IMG/VR virus record: IMGVR_UViG_3300029787_000003
Coordinates: 37,218 to 101,217 of that record
Length of the DNA: 64,000 nt
Reading direction: 5' to 3' (one strand)
Source of the DNA: a virus
Made by a program: the position numbers and the translations under genes. This document shows positions 37,190-43,711 of the stretch, piece after piece. The stretch's first letter is position 1; every line of letters begins with the position of its first letter. The notes beneath the pieces were generated by a model. It had not been told where the DNA came from. It did no database searches and worked only from the letters and a program-made list of their open reading frames with translations.

Positions 37190-37270
37190 GTCGTGTCTGA
37201 CCTTGACCTAGCCCCATCATCATATGAACCACCTGATGATGTACAATTACAAAATAACAGAGGTACACAA

Positions 37271-38790: not shown

Positions 38791-39049
38791 AATGAAACAT
38801 GATTTAGACCATGAAGTATATCTTGATCCTAAGGATCATAAGGAACATATTAATCATGGTATGTTAGAGTATAAAGAATCAGAACTTGAAGAAGTTCATG
38901 CAGATTATGAATACTCTCATAAAGACGAAGTAGTAGAGCCGAATGAAGGTAAGATTAATGATTGGCACACAAGACACGAGGATAAGCATTTAGAAATATA
39001 TTGTGATAACCACCCTGACGCATTTGAATGTCGAGTATATGACGATTAA
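38783..39049 (+). CDS. cp12: CP12 Calvin-cycle inhibitor
   Basis: C-terminal YCDNHPDAFECRVYDD signature. Confidence 0.92.
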   Translation: MSKMKHDLDHEVYLDPKDHKEHINHGMLEYKESELEEVHADYEYSHKDEVVEPNEGKINDWHTRHEDKHLEIYCDNHPDAFECRVYDD

Positions 39050-39070
39050 TTAACCAATATAAATTATATT

Positions 39071-40690
39071 ATGAAAGGAATTAAAATCACAGGTGACGAT
39101 GGTAACAGAACCATTGAATATGAAATGCAAAGTGTAAAGAAGATTACTATAGTTGGTGGTGGTACTGCTGGCTGGATGACTGCTGCTTGGACTGTAAGGA
39201 GAGCAGCCGCTTTTCATCATGCTCATGTAACTTTAATTGATAAAGAAGTACCTGAGAGAATTGGAGTAGGAGAAGCAAATCTTTTAAACTTTAATAAGTT
39301 TATGCACTTTTGTGGTTTTAATGATCCTACTGCATGGATGGATTCTGTAGATGCTACTTATAAAGGTGGTATCATGTATCCTAATTGGGGTAAAGATGGT
39401 AAAACAATATTTCATCCATTTGGTCAATATCACTTCCATACTAAAGCACCTGATGGGAGTGATTTTGTAATACCCTATGGTGATGTTCTATCAGCCAATC
39501 CTGATATTGATTATGCGTCATCATTATATTTCTTTCCCTCTTTGATTAAGGATAAAGTAGAGATAAATGAACTCTCAGCATATTCTGAGCAACTAGATTG
39601 TGGTAAGTATGTTGAATTTTTAATGAAAGAGATTAAAGGTTCAAAAGGATTTACATACATAAATTCTACTGTTGAAAATATAAATTGGGATGGGGAAGAT
39701 ATAACATCACTAGACTTGGCTGATGGTACTAAGAATGAAGCAGATGTATTCATTGACTGTACTGGATTCAAGAGACTGTTATCAGAGAAAAGAGAAATTG
39801 TTGATTTTAGTGGTAGATTATTTGTAAATACTGCGGTTGCTACAAGAGTACAGTATGTTGATAAGGAGAAAGAGTTGCATCCATATACAACTGCTACCTG
39901 TACTGATCATGGATGGATATGGGAAACACCATTGACTACTAGGATAGGAACAGGTCATGTATTTAATAGACATATTACTGACCCTGAGGATGCTAAGGAA
40001 TATTTTGTTAAGCATTGGGATAATAGAATTAAGAAAGAAGATTTAAGAACTATAAATTGGGATCCCTGTAGAATTAGTAAGTTTTGGGAAGGTAATGTAA
40101 TCAACATTGGTCTATCTGGTGGATTCATTGAACCATTAGAAAGTACTGGAATTGGTCTTATTATTAATGGAATAGAACTACTAGAGGATAGTCTGATTGG
40201 TGGGTGTTATGACTACATGGATAGAGACCAATATAATTTAAAGTTGATAAATGACTATGAAACTGCTGTAGATTTCATTAGTATGCACTATGACTATTCA
40301 CATATTCAGAGTCCATTTTGGGATCATGTTAGAAAGACATTTAAGAAGTCTGGATTTCAAAAGATGATGGAGAGTTCTATCTTAGATCCTGATTATCCAA
40401 CATATAAAGTATTGAGACATGGATTCTTTGGTGGTCACAACTGGGCAATTTGGTTACATCAATTAATGCAAAAAGAAGGTGGGTATCCAGCCAAGAAATA
40501 TTTTGATAATAGAAAATGGAGAAGAGAATTAATTGGAAGACTACAAGAAATGAAAAGTAATGCTAATAAAGGATTACCACATCTTAAAGCACTAGAATAT
40601 AAACCAACACTTGATGAGAGAATGATGGGTGAGGAGTCAATTAGAGCATTGGAAGAAGATAATATGAAAAGTGTTAGACAAATGGGATAG
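39071..40690 (+). CDS. Tryptophan halogenase-like flavoprotein (PrnA family)
   Basis: IVGGGTAGW, IGVGE, DATYKGGI, FIDCTGF, GWIWETPL, FIEPLESTG. Confidence 0.9.
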   Translation: MKGIKITGDDGNRTIEYEMQSVKKITIVGGGTAGWMTAAWTVRRAAAFHHAHVTLIDKEVPERIGVGEANLLNFNKFMHFCGFNDPTAWMDSVDATYKGGIMYPNWGKDGKTIFHPFGQYHFHTKAPDGSDFVIPYGDVLSANPDIDYASSLYFFPSLIKDKVEINELSAYSEQLDCGKYVEFLMKEIKGSKGFTYINSTVENINWDGEDITSLDLADGTKNEADVFIDCTGFKRLLSEKREIVDFSGRLFVNTAVATRVQYVDKEKELHPYTTATCTDHGWIWETPLTTRIGTGHVFNRHITDPEDAKEYFVKHWDNRIKKEDLRTINWDPCRISKFWEGNVINIGLSGGFIEPLESTGIGLIINGIELLEDSLIGGCYDYMDRDQYNLKLINDYETAVDFISMHYDYSHIQSPFWDHVRKTFKKSGFQKMMESSILDPDYPTYKVLRHGFFGGHNWAIWLHQLMQKEGGYPAKKYFDNRKWRRELIGRLQEMKSNANKGLPHLKALEYKPTLDERMMGEESIRALEEDNMKSVRQMG

Positions 40691-40709
40691 TATCTGTTAT
40701 AATGTAAGA

Positions 40710-40776
40710 GTCAGAGAAATACTGACTGCGGTAATGCCCTTTGGTAGGTTCAGCATTAGCGGCTATAGGAACCTAC
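40710..40776 (+). ncRNA. Candidate structured leader RNA: hairpin plus H-type pseudoknot
   Basis: GTCAG/CTGAC; TAATGC/GCATTA; GTAGGTTC/GAACCTAC; TATAAT at 40698. Confidence 0.5.
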
Positions 40777-40798
40777 ACTCATTAAGTACCATACCACT

Positions 40799-41770
40799 AT
40801 GATCGAGATAAAGCAACAGCCTGCTGAGAAGATTGGAGATATAGAGCAAGATTTTGATTTAATATACATGGATCCACCTTTCGGATTACAACGTGAGTTT
40901 ACTATGGTCGAGAAAGATGGAGAGAAGAAGGGATTTGCTGATCAATGGGATTCATTTGATGATTACATGGTGTGGTATGCAAATATTATTATAAAATCAT
41001 ATTATAAGTTAAAGAAGGATGGATGGTTATACTTACATAATAACTTTATCAACAATGCTTTAGTATTATCTAAAGTAACTGCTGAAATTCGTAATAATTT
41101 CTATACAAATATATCATGGAAGAGATCAGGGCCTAAGAATAATATTAAGAATGGATGGGGGAATATTGTAGATTCTATCATGGTTATTCAGAAAGGCAAC
41201 CCCTATTTTGAAGTTGAATATACATCACTAGACCCAATATATGAAGCAAATAGTTTTAAAAATAAGGATGAGAATGGATTTTATGCACTAGCAAAAGTTA
41301 CAGGAGAGAAGAGCAGGCCGTGTGCTAAGTATGAGTATAAGGGTTATAACCCTGAGTATGGATTCAGAATAACACAAGAGAAACTCAAAGGACTAGACGA
41401 TCAGAACTTACTACATTATGGTAAGAATATGTTATACAAAAAGATATACTCTCATGAGTCTAAGGGAGTTCCAGTTCAGAACTTCTGGGATGATGTATAT
41501 TTTATATCGAGGAGTGAGAAGAACAAGAGAAAGTATCCTACTCAGAAACCTCTAAAACTATTAGAAAGAATAATCAAATCAAGTTGCCCACCTGACGGAT
41601 GGGTACTGGATCCTTTTTGTGGATCAGGAACAACTGCTATAGCATCTTTGAACCTTGATAGAAATTGTATCACAACTGACGTGAACCCTGACGCAATCAA
41701 GATGGCCGATGTGGCAGTAAAAGAACTGTCACAAGAGAAGTTGAATCCTCTGGTTGAGGTGCTATATTAA
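40799..41770 (+). CDS. DNA adenine methyltransferase, beta class
   Basis: YMDPPF, ISWKR, YPTQKPLKLLERII, DPFCGSGTT. Confidence 0.92.
   Translation: MIEIKQQPAEKIGDIEQDFDLIYMDPPFGLQREFTMVEKDGEKKGFADQWDSFDDYMVWYANIIIKSYYKLKKDGWLYLHNNFINNALVLSKVTAEIRNNFYTNISWKRSGPKNNIKNGWGNIVDSIMVIQKGNPYFEVEYTSLDPIYEANSFKNKDENGFYALAKVTGEKSRPCAKYEYKGYNPEYGFRITQEKLKGLDDQNLLHYGKNMLYKKIYSHESKGVPVQNFWDDVYFISRSEKNKRKYPTQKPLKLLERIIKSSCPPDGWVLDPFCGSGTTAIASLNLDRNCITTDVNPDAIKMADVAVKELSQEKLNPLVEVLY
41711..41768 (+). promoter_or_regulatory. Palindrome-box promoter module 3
   Basis: GTGGCAG-TAAAAGAA-CTGTCAC, 30 nt, TATATT; TTGAAT at 41741. Confidence 0.7.
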
Positions 41771-41772
41771 TA

Positions 41773-41858
41773 GTGGGAAACAAAACAGGCAAGGATCTAT
41801 GGTTGTCTTTGTTCAGCAAAGAAATTACGTCCTGTAAGTCCGAGTTTTTGTTTCTCGC
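41773..41858 (+). ncRNA. Candidate structured leader RNA
   Basis: Closing stem GGGAAACAAAA/TTTTGTTTCTC; internal hairpin TCTTTG-TTCAG-CAAAGA. Confidence 0.45.
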
Positions 41859-41879
41859 ACCCTAATACTGGAGCATTAC

Positions 41880-42323
41880 ATGGCCACAAGATCAAGAATT
41901 GGTTACGTCTTACCTGACGATTCAATAGTATCAGTTTACCACCATTGGGATGGATACCCTGAGTGGTTAGGTGTTACTCTTAACAGAGAATACAATACAG
42001 AAGAGAAAGTAAGAAAACTCATTGATGGTGGTAACATGAGTAATTGTTGGTCAGATAGTAAATTTAATACAGAAACAAAAGAATTTGATAAGGTAGAACC
42101 TCATGTAAATTATTATGATGGGGATGATGAGAGACCAGAAATATCAGCAACCAGACAAGAGGCTGCTGAGTTGAATTGGGATGCTGAGTTCATCTATTTC
42201 TTTATGAATGGAAATTGGGAATGTTTCTCTATAAACAACAAATTGGATAAAGAGGGTACAGTAGTAGAGTCCACCATACTACCAGTAGAAATACCAGCAG
42301 GGGATGTTGCAGATGACAGTTAA
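41880..42323 (+). CDS. Conserved phage hypothetical protein
   Basis: MATRSRIG...SVYHHWDGYPEWLG...EFIYFF. Confidence 0.75.
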   Translation: MATRSRIGYVLPDDSIVSVYHHWDGYPEWLGVTLNREYNTEEKVRKLIDGGNMSNCWSDSKFNTETKEFDKVEPHVNYYDGDDERPEISATRQEAAELNWDAEFIYFFMNGNWECFSINNKLDKEGTVVESTILPVEIPAGDVADDS

Positions 42324-42370
42324 ATAACTGTCACATCCGATATTGTACTATGATGTAAAACTGCTATAAT
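42313..42370 (+). promoter_or_regulatory. Palindrome-box promoter module 4
   Basis: ATGACAG-TTAAATAA-CTGTCAC, 30 nt, TATAAT. Confidence 0.75.
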
Positions 42371-42376
42371 ACAGTT

Positions 42377-42523
42377 GTTGAGAAGGATAAGACTTTCAAG
42401 GTTGCGTTCAGTCGCATTTAAGTCGAACTTAAGCACCTTTTCAACACCTTTTACTGGGCATTACCACCCTCAACCGAGAACGTCACAGTACGCCACCCTC
42501 AACCGAGACCATGTAAGCCCCAG
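42377..42523 (+). ncRNA. Candidate two-domain structured RNA containing a duplicated 16-mer
   Basis: GTTGAGAAGG/CCTTTTCAAC multibranch domain; CTGGGC.TTAC/GTAA.GCCCCAG stem enclosing CCACCCTCAACCGAGA x2. Confidence 0.55.
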
Positions 42524-42551
42524 ACCCTTTTGTAAACCTGACTATTTTATT

Positions 42552-42665
42552 ATGTCTCAAACTTTCGCTGAGTTCCTACTCGACAACGCATCTACAGGAA
42601 ATGAGATTCTCTCAGTTCTTGATGATATTGTAGAGGTAACTGAAACAGGAGGAACTGACCTATAG
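42552..42665 (+). CDS. Acidic micropeptide, 37 aa (MSQTFAEFLLDNAS...)
   Basis: Last 37 codons of track ORF 42375, beginning just after the RNA element. Confidence 0.55.
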   Translation: MSQTFAEFLLDNASTGNEILSVLDDIVEVTETGGTDL

Positions 42666-42722
42666 GCCAGTTAAATAAGTGGAACAAGGCCCCTACACAG
42701 GGGTCTTGTTTTCTATTATAAT
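42664..42722 (+). promoter_or_regulatory. Palindrome-box promoter module 5 with internal hairpin
   Basis: AGGCCAG-TTAAATAA-GTGGAAC, 31 nt, TATAAT; hairpin at 42683-42710. Confidence 0.7.
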
Positions 42723-42752
42723 AAGTACATAGCAAACACAAAGAGTAACTCA

Positions 42753-43277
42753 ATGACTACTTCAATTCACAGTTTTATCAAGGACAAGAAAAAGCCAGAC
42801 TATAGAGATACACTAACAACAACCAGACTATTTGTTAGAGACTACACAAAAGATTACGCAGAAGCAATTACAGAGAATTACAGAAGACAACATATAAGAT
42901 CACTCAAGCATAACGCAACACGTTATACTGCTAGTGGAGACAAATCTTTATCTGACTATGCTACTGAGCAACTTAAAGAGATTGAAGATGGAACTGCTAA
43001 ACTAATGAGATTCAAGATCTATGAAGGTAGAAAATATTATAAGATAGTTCAGCAAGACTATCGTGAAGCATCCGAGTATTACAATACAGAGGCTGGGTAT
43101 CGTGATGGTTCAGTTCATTGTTTTGTTGATAAGAAATCAGGGGATGTTTACAAGGCTGCGTCATGGAACGCACCTGCAAAGCACGTTAGATATTCATTCC
43201 AGAATACTAAACATCTAAGATTCTTACTTGACCCTAACAATGTGGGTTGGGCTGGTGGTTACTTATACATGAGGTAA
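42753..43277 (+). CDS. Conserved phage hypothetical protein
   Basis: GRKYYKIV...GSVHCFVDKKSGDVYKAASWNAPAKHVRY. Confidence 0.75.
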   Translation: MTTSIHSFIKDKKKPDYRDTLTTTRLFVRDYTKDYAEAITENYRRQHIRSLKHNATRYTASGDKSLSDYATEQLKEIEDGTAKLMRFKIYEGRKYYKIVQQDYREASEYYNTEAGYRDGSVHCFVDKKSGDVYKAASWNAPAKHVRYSFQNTKHLRFLLDPNNVGWAGGYLYMR

Positions 43278-43280
43278 TAA

Positions 43281-43471
43281 CAATGGACAAAAGTGTAGAG
43301 ATCATGAGTGAACATTATGTTCAGAGATTTAAGACCCTATTAGAGGGAGAAACATTAGATCTACAGATAAAAAGACATAGGGATGCACAATCTATTATGG
43401 AAGAATACCTATGTGGTGGAGTAGAGAATGATAGTTACAAATGGTTGCACATTAACAAATTGGAGGCTTAA
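43281..43471 (+). CDS. Hypothetical protein (MDKSVEIMSEHY...); start approximate
   Basis: GAGG Shine-Dalgarno before the ATG near 43283; same frame as track ORF 43247. Confidence 0.55.
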
Positions 43472-43474
43472 ACT

Positions 43475-43711
43475 ATGATTACAGCATTTTGGACAGGAGT
43501 TGTTGTAGCAATTCCAACTTCACTTATCACAATGAAGTTACTGAACAGTTCACTCTTTATAAGTAATACTGAATTAAGAGAAGCTAATGCAAAGATAAGT
43601 CTCATCATTAATAACCTTGATGACTTCCGAGAGGAGAGAATGAAGGATAAAATGGAGAGATTAGGCATTACAGACAAACTTGACCCCAGATTATCCACTA
43701 AAATCAAATGA
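43475..43711 (+). CDS. Small membrane-anchored protein
   Basis: Hydrophobic N-terminus followed by a coiled coil; GGAGG Shine-Dalgarno. Confidence 0.6.
   Translation: MITAFWTGVVVAIPTSLITMKLLNSSLFISNTELREANAKISLIINNLDDFREERMKDKMERLGITDKLDPRLSTKIK

Follow-up and report, generated by a model that had tools for sequence, protein, structure and literature searches.

A promoter-coupled hairpin and pseudoknot RNA of marine cyanophages lies ahead of tRNAs and unrelated protein genes

The window analyzed here is a 64,000-nucleotide (nt) stretch of the virus record IMGVR_UViG_3300029787_000003 (positions 37,218 to 101,217), whose source is a 152-kb cyanophage record with 35% G+C. Ahead of a DNA methyltransferase gene, this window carries one copy of a phage RNA element in which a promoter is followed by a hairpin (P1) and by two stems that form an H-type pseudoknot (Table 1). 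Judged by comparison with its relatives, the hairpin plus H-type pseudoknot is a real RNA structure, and the element family is confined to phages, in which its distribution is patchy. The same element precedes tRNA genes and many unrelated protein genes, and we tentatively favor the reading that it is a gene-independent RNA product that would be excised and would act by binding a conserved protein.

Structure and conservation of the element

When 1 kb around the site was used as a blastn query, other phages matched window positions 40692 to 40776 alone, and the flanking genes were unmatched. The matches were found in the Prochlorococcus phages P-SSM2 and P-SSM5, in the siphovirus S-SKS1, and in two single-cell viral genomes, each of them sitting in an unannotated spacer between differing genes. 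Three pattern scans of IMG/VR contigs returned at least 120, 67, and 12 contigs (at least 199 viral contigs in all), and the pooled homologue set comprised 205 loci with 147 distinct cores, non-canonical copies included (individual loci are cited below by L numbers).

Among the 97 canonical copies, 98.8% of the cells were paired, compared with 87.5% in shuffles and 16% to 49% with slid partners, and changes on both sides of a pair were seen in four of the five P1 pairs and in four of the eight stem-1 pairs. The first scan had fixed the 5' strand of stem 2, and additional scans were therefore made for G48 or U45 variants with the 3' strand left free. The stem-2 partners covaried in these variants (GUAGAUUC/GAAUCUAC, GUAGUUUC/GAAACUAC, GCAGGUUC/GAACCUGC, GUGGUUUC/GAAACCAC, AUGGAUUC/GAAUCCAU, and CUGGUUUC/GAAAUCAG). 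Compensatory examples in stem 2 also include the change from GGUAGGUUC/GAACCUACC to GGUAGUUUC/GAAACUACC, GCAGG/CCUGC, and AUGG/CCAU. Across the 147 cores, both-side changes occurred at 6 of the 10 stem-2 pairs and at 5 of the 8 stem-1 pairs, with 97.3% of the cells paired; in stem 1, 99.5% of the cells were paired (for example, UA/CG/UG, AU/GU/UA/GC, and AU/CG/GC/UA). None of the 500 shuffles of these cores equalled the observed percentage paired, the count of double-change cells, or the covariation score. Since all three helices covary, the H-type pseudoknot proposed in the initial annotation of the window is to be regarded as real, and the compensatory changes point to an RNA structure rather than to a DNA-level element. 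A covariance model built from the cores also recovered a divergent copy in Synechococcus phage ACG-2014f, in which one stem-2 base pair has been lost from both strands and the GCGGC and ATAG bases are retained.

In the window copy, the TATAAT, the hairpin, and both stems described in the initial annotation all lie where it had placed them. Read directly, the -35-like TAGACA is found at positions 40675 to 40680, the TG at 40695 to 40696, and the TATAAT at 40698 to 40703, and a promoter scan ranked this TAGACA/TATAAT pair as the best promoter-like site within 39000 to 43500. The core of stem 1, TAATGC/GCATTA (40732 to 40737 with 40753 to 40758), continues past the G31.G59 mismatch into the pairs G40730-C40760 and C40729-G40761, which bears out the extension through GC pairs that had been suggested. 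The strands of stem 2 are GTAGGTTC and GAACCTAC. In most relatives, stem 2 has 9 to 10 bp (G43-C77 or A43-U77, and U42-A78), whereas the window copy has G43.A77 and its stem 2 thus stays at 8 bp; loop 1 has 6 nt in the window and 4 to 5 nt where stem 2 reaches 9 to 10 bp. Loop 2 is one A, and loop 3 has 7 nt. In the family, stem 1 consists of 8 pairs and a single purine-purine layer. The G+C content of the element is 48%, against 34% to 36% in its surroundings, in line with the initial description of it as GC-richer, and its end 22 nt before a methyltransferase start codon that lacks a Shine-Dalgarno sequence was likewise confirmed.

Table 1. Features of the window copy of the element and of its flanking genes
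Feature	Positions	Strand	Details
RNA element copy, including promoter	40675-40776	+	One copy of the phage RNA family
Sigma-70-type promoter: TAGACA, 17-nt spacer, TG-n-TATAAT (extended -10)	40675-40703	+	11/12 matches
P1, 5'-terminal hairpin GUCAG-AGAAAUA-CUGAC	40710-40726	+	Strands 40710-40714 and 40722-40726; both-side pair changes
UG joiner between P1 and stem 1, part of invariant CUGCG	40727-40728	+	Conservation in 97 and 147 sequences
Pseudoknot stem 1	40729-40761	+	40729-40737 with 40753-40761: C-G, G-C, G.G mismatch, 6 Watson-Crick pairs
Loop 1, CCUUUG	40738-40743	+	CCUU invariant or nearly so
Pseudoknot stem 2	40744-40776	+	40744-40751 with 40769-40776; loop 2 is the single A40752
Loop 3, GCUAUAG	40762-40768	+	Family consensus GCKAUAG, invariant save K
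Spacer to ATG, 22 nt, 64% A+U, without Shine-Dalgarno	40777-40798	+	Read directly
DNA methyltransferase N6_N4_Mtase, 323 aa, ATG at 40799	40799-41770	+	PF01555, E = 1.1e-38
Tryptophan-halogenase-like flavoenzyme, upstream gene	39071-40690	+	PF04820, E = 2.9e-86

Single-sequence folding was weakly informative. Against shuffles, the P1 hairpin (-3.9 kcal/mol) had a z score of -3.7, the stem-2 hairpin one of -3.6, and the whole element one of -1.3; since the folding is only mildly better than that of shuffles, the case for the structure rests on the comparison with relatives.

About 25 bases of the pseudoknot module are invariant. CTGCG is invariant in the 97 and in the 147 sequences and was fixed by the later scan patterns but left free by the first one, and the search patterns also prescribed GCGGC and ATAG, whose invariance is therefore in part an effect of the way copies were gathered. 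The junction-proximal stem-2 pairs C51-G69, U50-A70, and U49-A71 and the CCUU of loop 1 never vary, and CCUU may possibly form C+.G-C and U.A-U major-groove triples with these pairs.

The element is closely coupled to its promoter. A -10 hexamer was found in 154 of the 163 distinct upstream sequences (exact TATAAT in 117, TG at -15/-14 in 98), and the gap from this hexamer to the first paired base of P1 is exactly 6 nt in 122 of the 154 homologues. P1 itself is diverse, some copies having a 4-bp hairpin with a GNRA cap and others a stem whose loop reaches 19 nt, with the 6-nt gap holding. Because the spacing is fixed despite the variable P1, transcription is expected to start at the first P1 base, which in the window would be close to position 40710 and would leave the transcript with no unpaired 5' end. 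A terminator-type T-run directly precedes 49 of the 154 copies. In the window, the -35 region is overlapped by the final codons of the halogenase-like gene, and a terminator scan of the plus strand found no terminator-like site between this gene and the element.

Downstream genes, distribution, and known RNA families

The gene that follows the element (its cargo) differs widely among the 205 loci. In 45 of them (22% of copies), a tRNA starts 3 to 6 nt past stem 2, namely, tRNA-Arg(tct) in 28, tRNA-Pro(tgg) in 16, and tRNA-Val in 1. Another tRNA (Tyr, Ile, or Ser) ends ~48 nt upstream in 16 of these 45 loci, the element thus lying between two tRNAs, and in L063 the element stands at the head of an array of more than 20 tRNAs. 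In the non-tRNA loci, the ATG mostly lies 13 to 29 nt past stem 2; the cargo proteins form at least 30 unrelated clusters and include PurM, PurH, PstS, phosphomannomutase (PMM), gp32, halogenase, a 2-oxoglutarate (2OG) oxygenase, and small uncharacterised proteins. Ahead of tRNA-Arg(tct), tRNA-Pro(tgg), and unrelated protein genes, the element is ~80% to 90% identical. A methyltransferase is the cargo in only one locus, that of the window. The element often lies within the replication-gene module (gp41, gp43, gp32, and gp62/regA).

In one copy of Synechococcus phage ACG-2014f (KJ019100.1, ~128559 to 128632; L229:1556-1629), a tRNA-Arg(tct) that is unannotated in GenBank follows directly after the element, and in sister ACG-2014f records a "hypothetical protein" has been annotated across the element. 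A tryptophan-halogenase-like gene is located upstream of the element in the window and downstream, as cargo, in L037:10941-12080, and the element appears from these arrangements to have moved relative to this gene family.

Across the family, the spacers between stem 2 and the cargo are AU-rich, G-poor, and unconserved, and no Shine-Dalgarno sequence was found in or near stem 2. There is also no consistent U-tract after stem 2, the 8 nt that follow it containing 3.45 U on average where the T background is 31%; one locus class is nearly without U at this place, and a U6 tract is present only in L146 and L154. Stem 2 plus a U-tract was rejected as a general intrinsic terminator or attenuator because the U-tract is not consistent.

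The largest cargo cluster is a DUF6561-like gene that is followed by a second DUF6561 gene and then by the gene for the family-B DNA polymerase gp43. This order is seen in L029:534-3587 and in 13 other loci, where the DUF6561-like protein has ~105 amino acids and a weak Sm-like match and the DUF6561 protein has ~87 amino acids. In many cyanomyoviruses, a DUF6561 gene stands immediately ahead of gp43. The DUF6561/Sm-like protein was considered as a dedicated partner of the element and rejected, because its homologues occur in 249 phage records, element-negative ones included (P-HM1, S-RIM2, P-TIM68, and S-B68); in P-SSM2 and S-SKS1, the DUF6561 gene is 4 to at least 30 kb away from the element.

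About 65 isolate records carry the element. The cultured phages with a copy are P-SSM2, P-SSM5, S-SKS1, SynMITS9220M01, S-SCSM2R, Bellamy, and many ACG-2014f isolates, whereas the covariance model found none in P-TIM68, P-HM1, S-RIM2, and S-B68. Five genomes were scanned for copy number, those of the window phage, P-SSM2, S-SKS1, and two IMG/VR phages, one of the five being 100% complete. The covariance model found one copy per genome, scoring 75 to 80 bits, with the next best site at 15 bits or less; in the window phage, no further copy was found in the window or elsewhere in its genome. Myoviruses and the siphovirus share the element at ~80% to 87% identity, and it appears to have passed between these two groups. 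In a scan of 185,579 prokaryote genomes, one per species, the single match was to an 832-bp contig of a metagenome-assembled genome (MAG). This contig (L206, JAURJB010000094.1) has low coverage in an Acidimicrobiales MAG and is probably phage DNA that was binned by mistake.

No described RNA family was found that would account for the element. With Rfam 15, the whole window gave no match at gathering thresholds, positions 40600 to 40900 gave at E values up to 10 only a chance snoRNA match outside the element, and a tRNA-type copy gave none at E values up to 10. The unmatched families include manA, wcaG, SAM-II, SAM-V, preQ1-I/II/III, and fluoride, as well as the ribozymes pistol, twister, hatchet, hammerhead, and HDV, so that the failure of the initial by-eye comparison to match preQ1, SAM-II/V, fluoride, or the small ribozymes is confirmed by covariance models. 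As a positive control, manA and wcaG were found elsewhere in related loci at 82 to 193 bits. None of the papers searched contained the core sequence; the catalogue of 10,006 candidate viral RNAs published by Fremin and Bhatt in 2023 (PMC10690425) may include the motif.

The motifs manA (RF01745) and wcaG (RF01761) are orphan cis-regulatory motifs of T4-like cyanophages (Weinberg et al. 2010, PMC2864571). They resemble the element in that they occur in the same phages, marine metagenomes, and gene islands and in the 5' leaders of mixed metabolic genes. However, their covariance models match other positions and never the element, which is shorter, is flush with its promoter, and also stands ahead of tRNAs. 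In P-SSM2, manA precedes purL and lies ~1 kb upstream of the element; in L179, it ends 60 nt ahead of a pseudoknot core without the P1 hairpin, which is followed by gp32; and in S-SKS1, wcaG lies ~570 nt downstream of the element. Placements of manA or wcaG at ~0.1 to 1 kb from the element are found at L001:1823-2020, L179:1576-1760, L003:3643-3740, and L046:2750-2845. The element is therefore a third, separate RNA in the manA/wcaG gene islands.

Another phage pseudoknot, the operator of T4/T2 gene 32 mRNA (summarised in PMC10690425), belongs likewise to T4-like phages and has a 5' H-type pseudoknot in a leader with an AU-rich unstructured stretch to the start codon. In contrast, 204 of the 205 copies of the element are not at gene 32, L179 being the sole gp32 case, and the element has the additional P1 hairpin, frequent tRNA cargo, and no known sequence similarity to the operator.

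Possible functions

Under the reading that we tentatively favor, host RNA polymerase would start at the first base of P1 and produce an RNA without a free 5' tail. The product would be a compact RNA of ~70 nt whose 5' end is closed by P1 and whose 3' end is closed by the pseudoknot. RNase P would release it where a tRNA begins 3 to 6 nt downstream, and in mRNA contexts release would come from cleavage in the AU-rich spacer. The invariant loops would bind a conserved protein, most likely one of the host, and the RNA would act in trans as a decoy or sponge, or else on the transcribing polymerase. In the window phage, the methyltransferase gene would merely be the one that is transcribed from the promoter of the module.

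RNase P removes every tRNA 5' leader. The element should therefore be separated from its cargo in at least 45 tRNA contexts, and in these contexts it should be unable to act on the translation or stability of the cargo. Covariation, independence of cargo, the single copy per genome, the phage-only range, the fixed promoter spacing, and modularity are all consistent with an RNA product. Excision may be built into the layout of the 16 tRNA-type copies that lie between two tRNAs, and the downstream gene seems able to have its own promoter, as in loci of the S-SKS1 type. In such loci (e.g., L003:3083-3125), a second promoter (TTGACT, 17 nt, TATAAT) follows right after the element, giving tandem promoters ~90 nt apart ahead of an open reading frame (ORF) of 73 codons' worth of amino acids (73 aa).

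The closest analogues of the element appear to be two stable RNAs of phage T4, C and D, along with manA and wcaG, the orphan motifs described above. The T4 stable RNAs (species 1 and 2; rnaC and rnaD) are small structured RNAs of unsettled function in the T4 tRNA cluster. In T4 they are cotranscribed with tRNAs and released by tRNA-processing enzymes, a layout that would fit 45 of the 205 loci here. The element differs in being ~70 nt long and pseudoknotted, with its own promoter and mostly before protein genes, and the likeness is one of layout alone.

Several points weigh against an excised product. No terminator follows the element, which is always co-oriented with a gene and usually 13 to 29 nt from it; the element would thus at least double as the promoter and 5' untranslated region of the downstream gene, and a role in cis is possible. 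The only recurrent neighbor, DUF6561, is common in cyanophages without the element. The invariant loops would suit a small-molecule aptamer equally well, and several of the "invariant" positions were set by the search patterns, their conservation being partly an effect of collection. Finally, where the RNA starts, where it ends, and how stable it is are all predicted from sequence.

A broader proposal, which we hold possible but rather doubtful, is that the element is part of a combinatorial, phage-only RNA toolkit located at the starts of early transcripts, with parts that can be nested and that would capture a host machine. Candidates for such a machine include RNA polymerase (through processive antitermination, cyanobacteria being Rho-less), RNase E/J, and proteins of defence. 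If true, this would represent a new class of RNA-based host takeover.

The element could instead be a shield that works in cis, the flush hairpin and the pseudoknot protecting the transcript from decay by RppH, RNase E, and RNase J and so giving strong and stable early expression of any cargo. Emory, Bouvet and Belasco reportedly found in 1992 that 5' stem-loops protect Escherichia coli mRNA only with almost no unpaired 5' bases. Protection by 5'-terminal stem-loops is established in E. coli, and the start of P1 at the expected transcription start in 122 of the 154 homologues would agree with it, as would the constant co-orientation with, and nearness to, the cargo and the promoter-flush helices with which other leaders in the window also open. 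However, the 22% of copies that precede tRNAs would be cut from them by RNase P, and tRNAs are stable anyway. The ~25 bases that are invariant across myoviruses and a siphovirus exceed the needs of simple stability, the second promoter of S-SKS1-type loci would yield cargo transcripts without the element, and an RNA that stabilised transcripts in general should occur at several places in a genome, where one copy was found. We therefore consider a shield unlikely.

Less probable still is an orphan riboswitch, that is, an aptamer for a metabolite or signal of host state that would tune auxiliary metabolic genes in the manner of manA and wcaG. A compact covarying fold with invariant loops and joiners, and hence an aptamer-like domain in a 5' leader, is present, and the element shares its gene islands with manA and wcaG, its core in L179 lying between manA and gp32. 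The cargo includes purM, purH, pstS, and PMM. The element has the same topology as SAM-II (RF00521), SAM-V (RF01826), and preQ1-II, which likewise have invariant loops, and its loop-1 CCUU is placed along the stem-2 purine strand GAA in a geometry that would permit a loop-1/stem-2 triplex as in SAM-II and preQ1-II. However, neither these families nor fluoride gave a covariance-model match at E values up to 10. No expression platform was found: the tRNAs are only 3 to 6 nt away, there is no consistent U-tract, and stem 2 contains no Shine-Dalgarno sequence. The cargo, consisting of tRNAs and at least 30 unrelated clusters, has no common pathway or ligand.

It is also improbable, to a slightly greater degree, that the element is a put-like antiterminator, in which the nascent RNA would bind its own polymerase and carry it through pause and termination sites of tRNA arrays and early operons. 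The put RNAs of phage HK022 (putL and putR) are ~70 nt long, restricted to phages, located after an early promoter, independent of cargo, and present in one or two copies. The element resembles them in size, in its phage-only range, in its promoter-proximal position, in its independence of cargo, and in its copy number of one per genome; it heads the array of more than 20 tRNAs in L063, and the 49 of 154 copies just after a T-run indicate that terminators are common nearby. The put fold, however, consists of two stem-loops without a pseudoknot, no terminator requiring read-through was found, and we know of no control of this kind in cyanobacteria. A put-like mode of action would be a special case of, and overlaps with, the binding of a conserved protein that we favor.

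It is very improbable that the element is a ribozyme that cleaves itself or that it works at the level of DNA, for instance as an origin of replication or a PeSL-type recombination cassette, even though the core is conserved and pseudoknotted, is present as a single copy, and is often found in the replication-gene module. No ribozyme family matched, and a start at P1 would leave nothing upstream to cleave off. The compensatory changes indicate RNA structure and speak against a DNA element, and a replication origin was rejected because GC skew does not switch at 40.7 kb and because the element directly adjoins tRNA genes. PeSLs are promoter-early stem-loop cassettes of T4-type phages (PMC2839356, PMC4122927). 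As portable units of promoter and structure that border variable genes, they resemble the element, of which 49 of 154 copies follow a T-run. However, PeSLs are multi-copy promoter-terminator composites with a terminator stem-loop (PMC4122927), whereas the element is single-copy, its stem 2 is not followed by a U-tract, and what covariation maintains in it is a structure of the RNA, past the promoter.

That the element controls the methyltransferase, by responding to SAM/SAH or through translation in some other way, as suggested by a SAM-dependent enzyme that begins 22 nt downstream without a Shine-Dalgarno sequence, is hardly tenable, given one methyltransferase among 205 loci, no SAM-II or SAM-V match, and tRNA cargo that is incompatible with translational control.

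Unrelated cargo together with tRNAs thus leaves a methyltransferase- or SAM-specific switch unsupported, and the link to the SAM-dependent enzyme made in the initial annotation does not hold, the same element preceding tRNAs and at least 30 unrelated clusters. The annotation had offered a riboswitch, a ribozyme, or a translational control element: a structured leader RNA is indeed present, a riboswitch or ribozyme is disfavored, and a function common to all copies cannot lie in translational control, given how often tRNA genes are the cargo. The independence of cargo, the single copy, and the exchange between myoviruses and a siphovirus suggest that the RNA acts on a conserved partner and is not a switch tied to one gene; identifying this partner could reveal a novel way in which phages take over their host, or a novel ligand.

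The hosts of marine cyanophages are phototrophs that abound in the ocean. To our knowledge, few non-coding RNAs are known in these phages (manA, wcaG, PhotoRC-II, glnA, and CfrI). The element would add a strongly conserved and well-supported pseudoknot RNA in cultivable phages (P-SSM2, S-SKS1, ACG-2014f, and Bellamy), in which it is directly testable.

Leader modules and neighboring features

In eight loci (L130, L132, L146, L150, L154, L166, L178, and L187), P1 encloses a conserved, structured extra domain of 100 to 200 nt. The P1 of these large variants, GUGAGGGA...UCCCUCAC, itself covaries (an example is L146:4768-5046). Parts of the large variants are 88% to 93% identical to other leaders of the window, at 41786 to 41841 and 42315 to 42389, both of which also have a promoter-flush closing helix, and the insert of L130 is 92% identical to window positions 41789 to 41840. 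L146 and L154 are syntenic with window positions 42315 to 42700, where they have the pseudoknot and the window leader has different modules. Leader modules appear from these identities to have been exchanged and nested between loci, and nesting of this kind suggests an assembly of phage 5' leaders from exchangeable RNA parts. An RNAalifold consensus of the eight large variants was unreliable, as there were too few sequences and the 5' alignment was poor.

The insert of the large variants has long-range pairs of its own, with CUACUG/CAGUAG changing to CUCUAG/CUAGAG. One part of it, GGGGGUUCAGGUGUAAGCGAU, is similar to the core of the pseudoknot, from which it may have arisen by duplication and divergence.

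A CP12 gene is also located upstream of the element in the window, and ARAGORN found no tRNA or tmRNA within the window. The promoter of the pseudoknot itself (40640 to 40703) is without a GnCAGT-type palindrome; palindromes of the form GnCAGT-N8-ACTGTCAC stand ahead of other promoters in the window, at positions 41711 to 41733 and 42313 to 42336.

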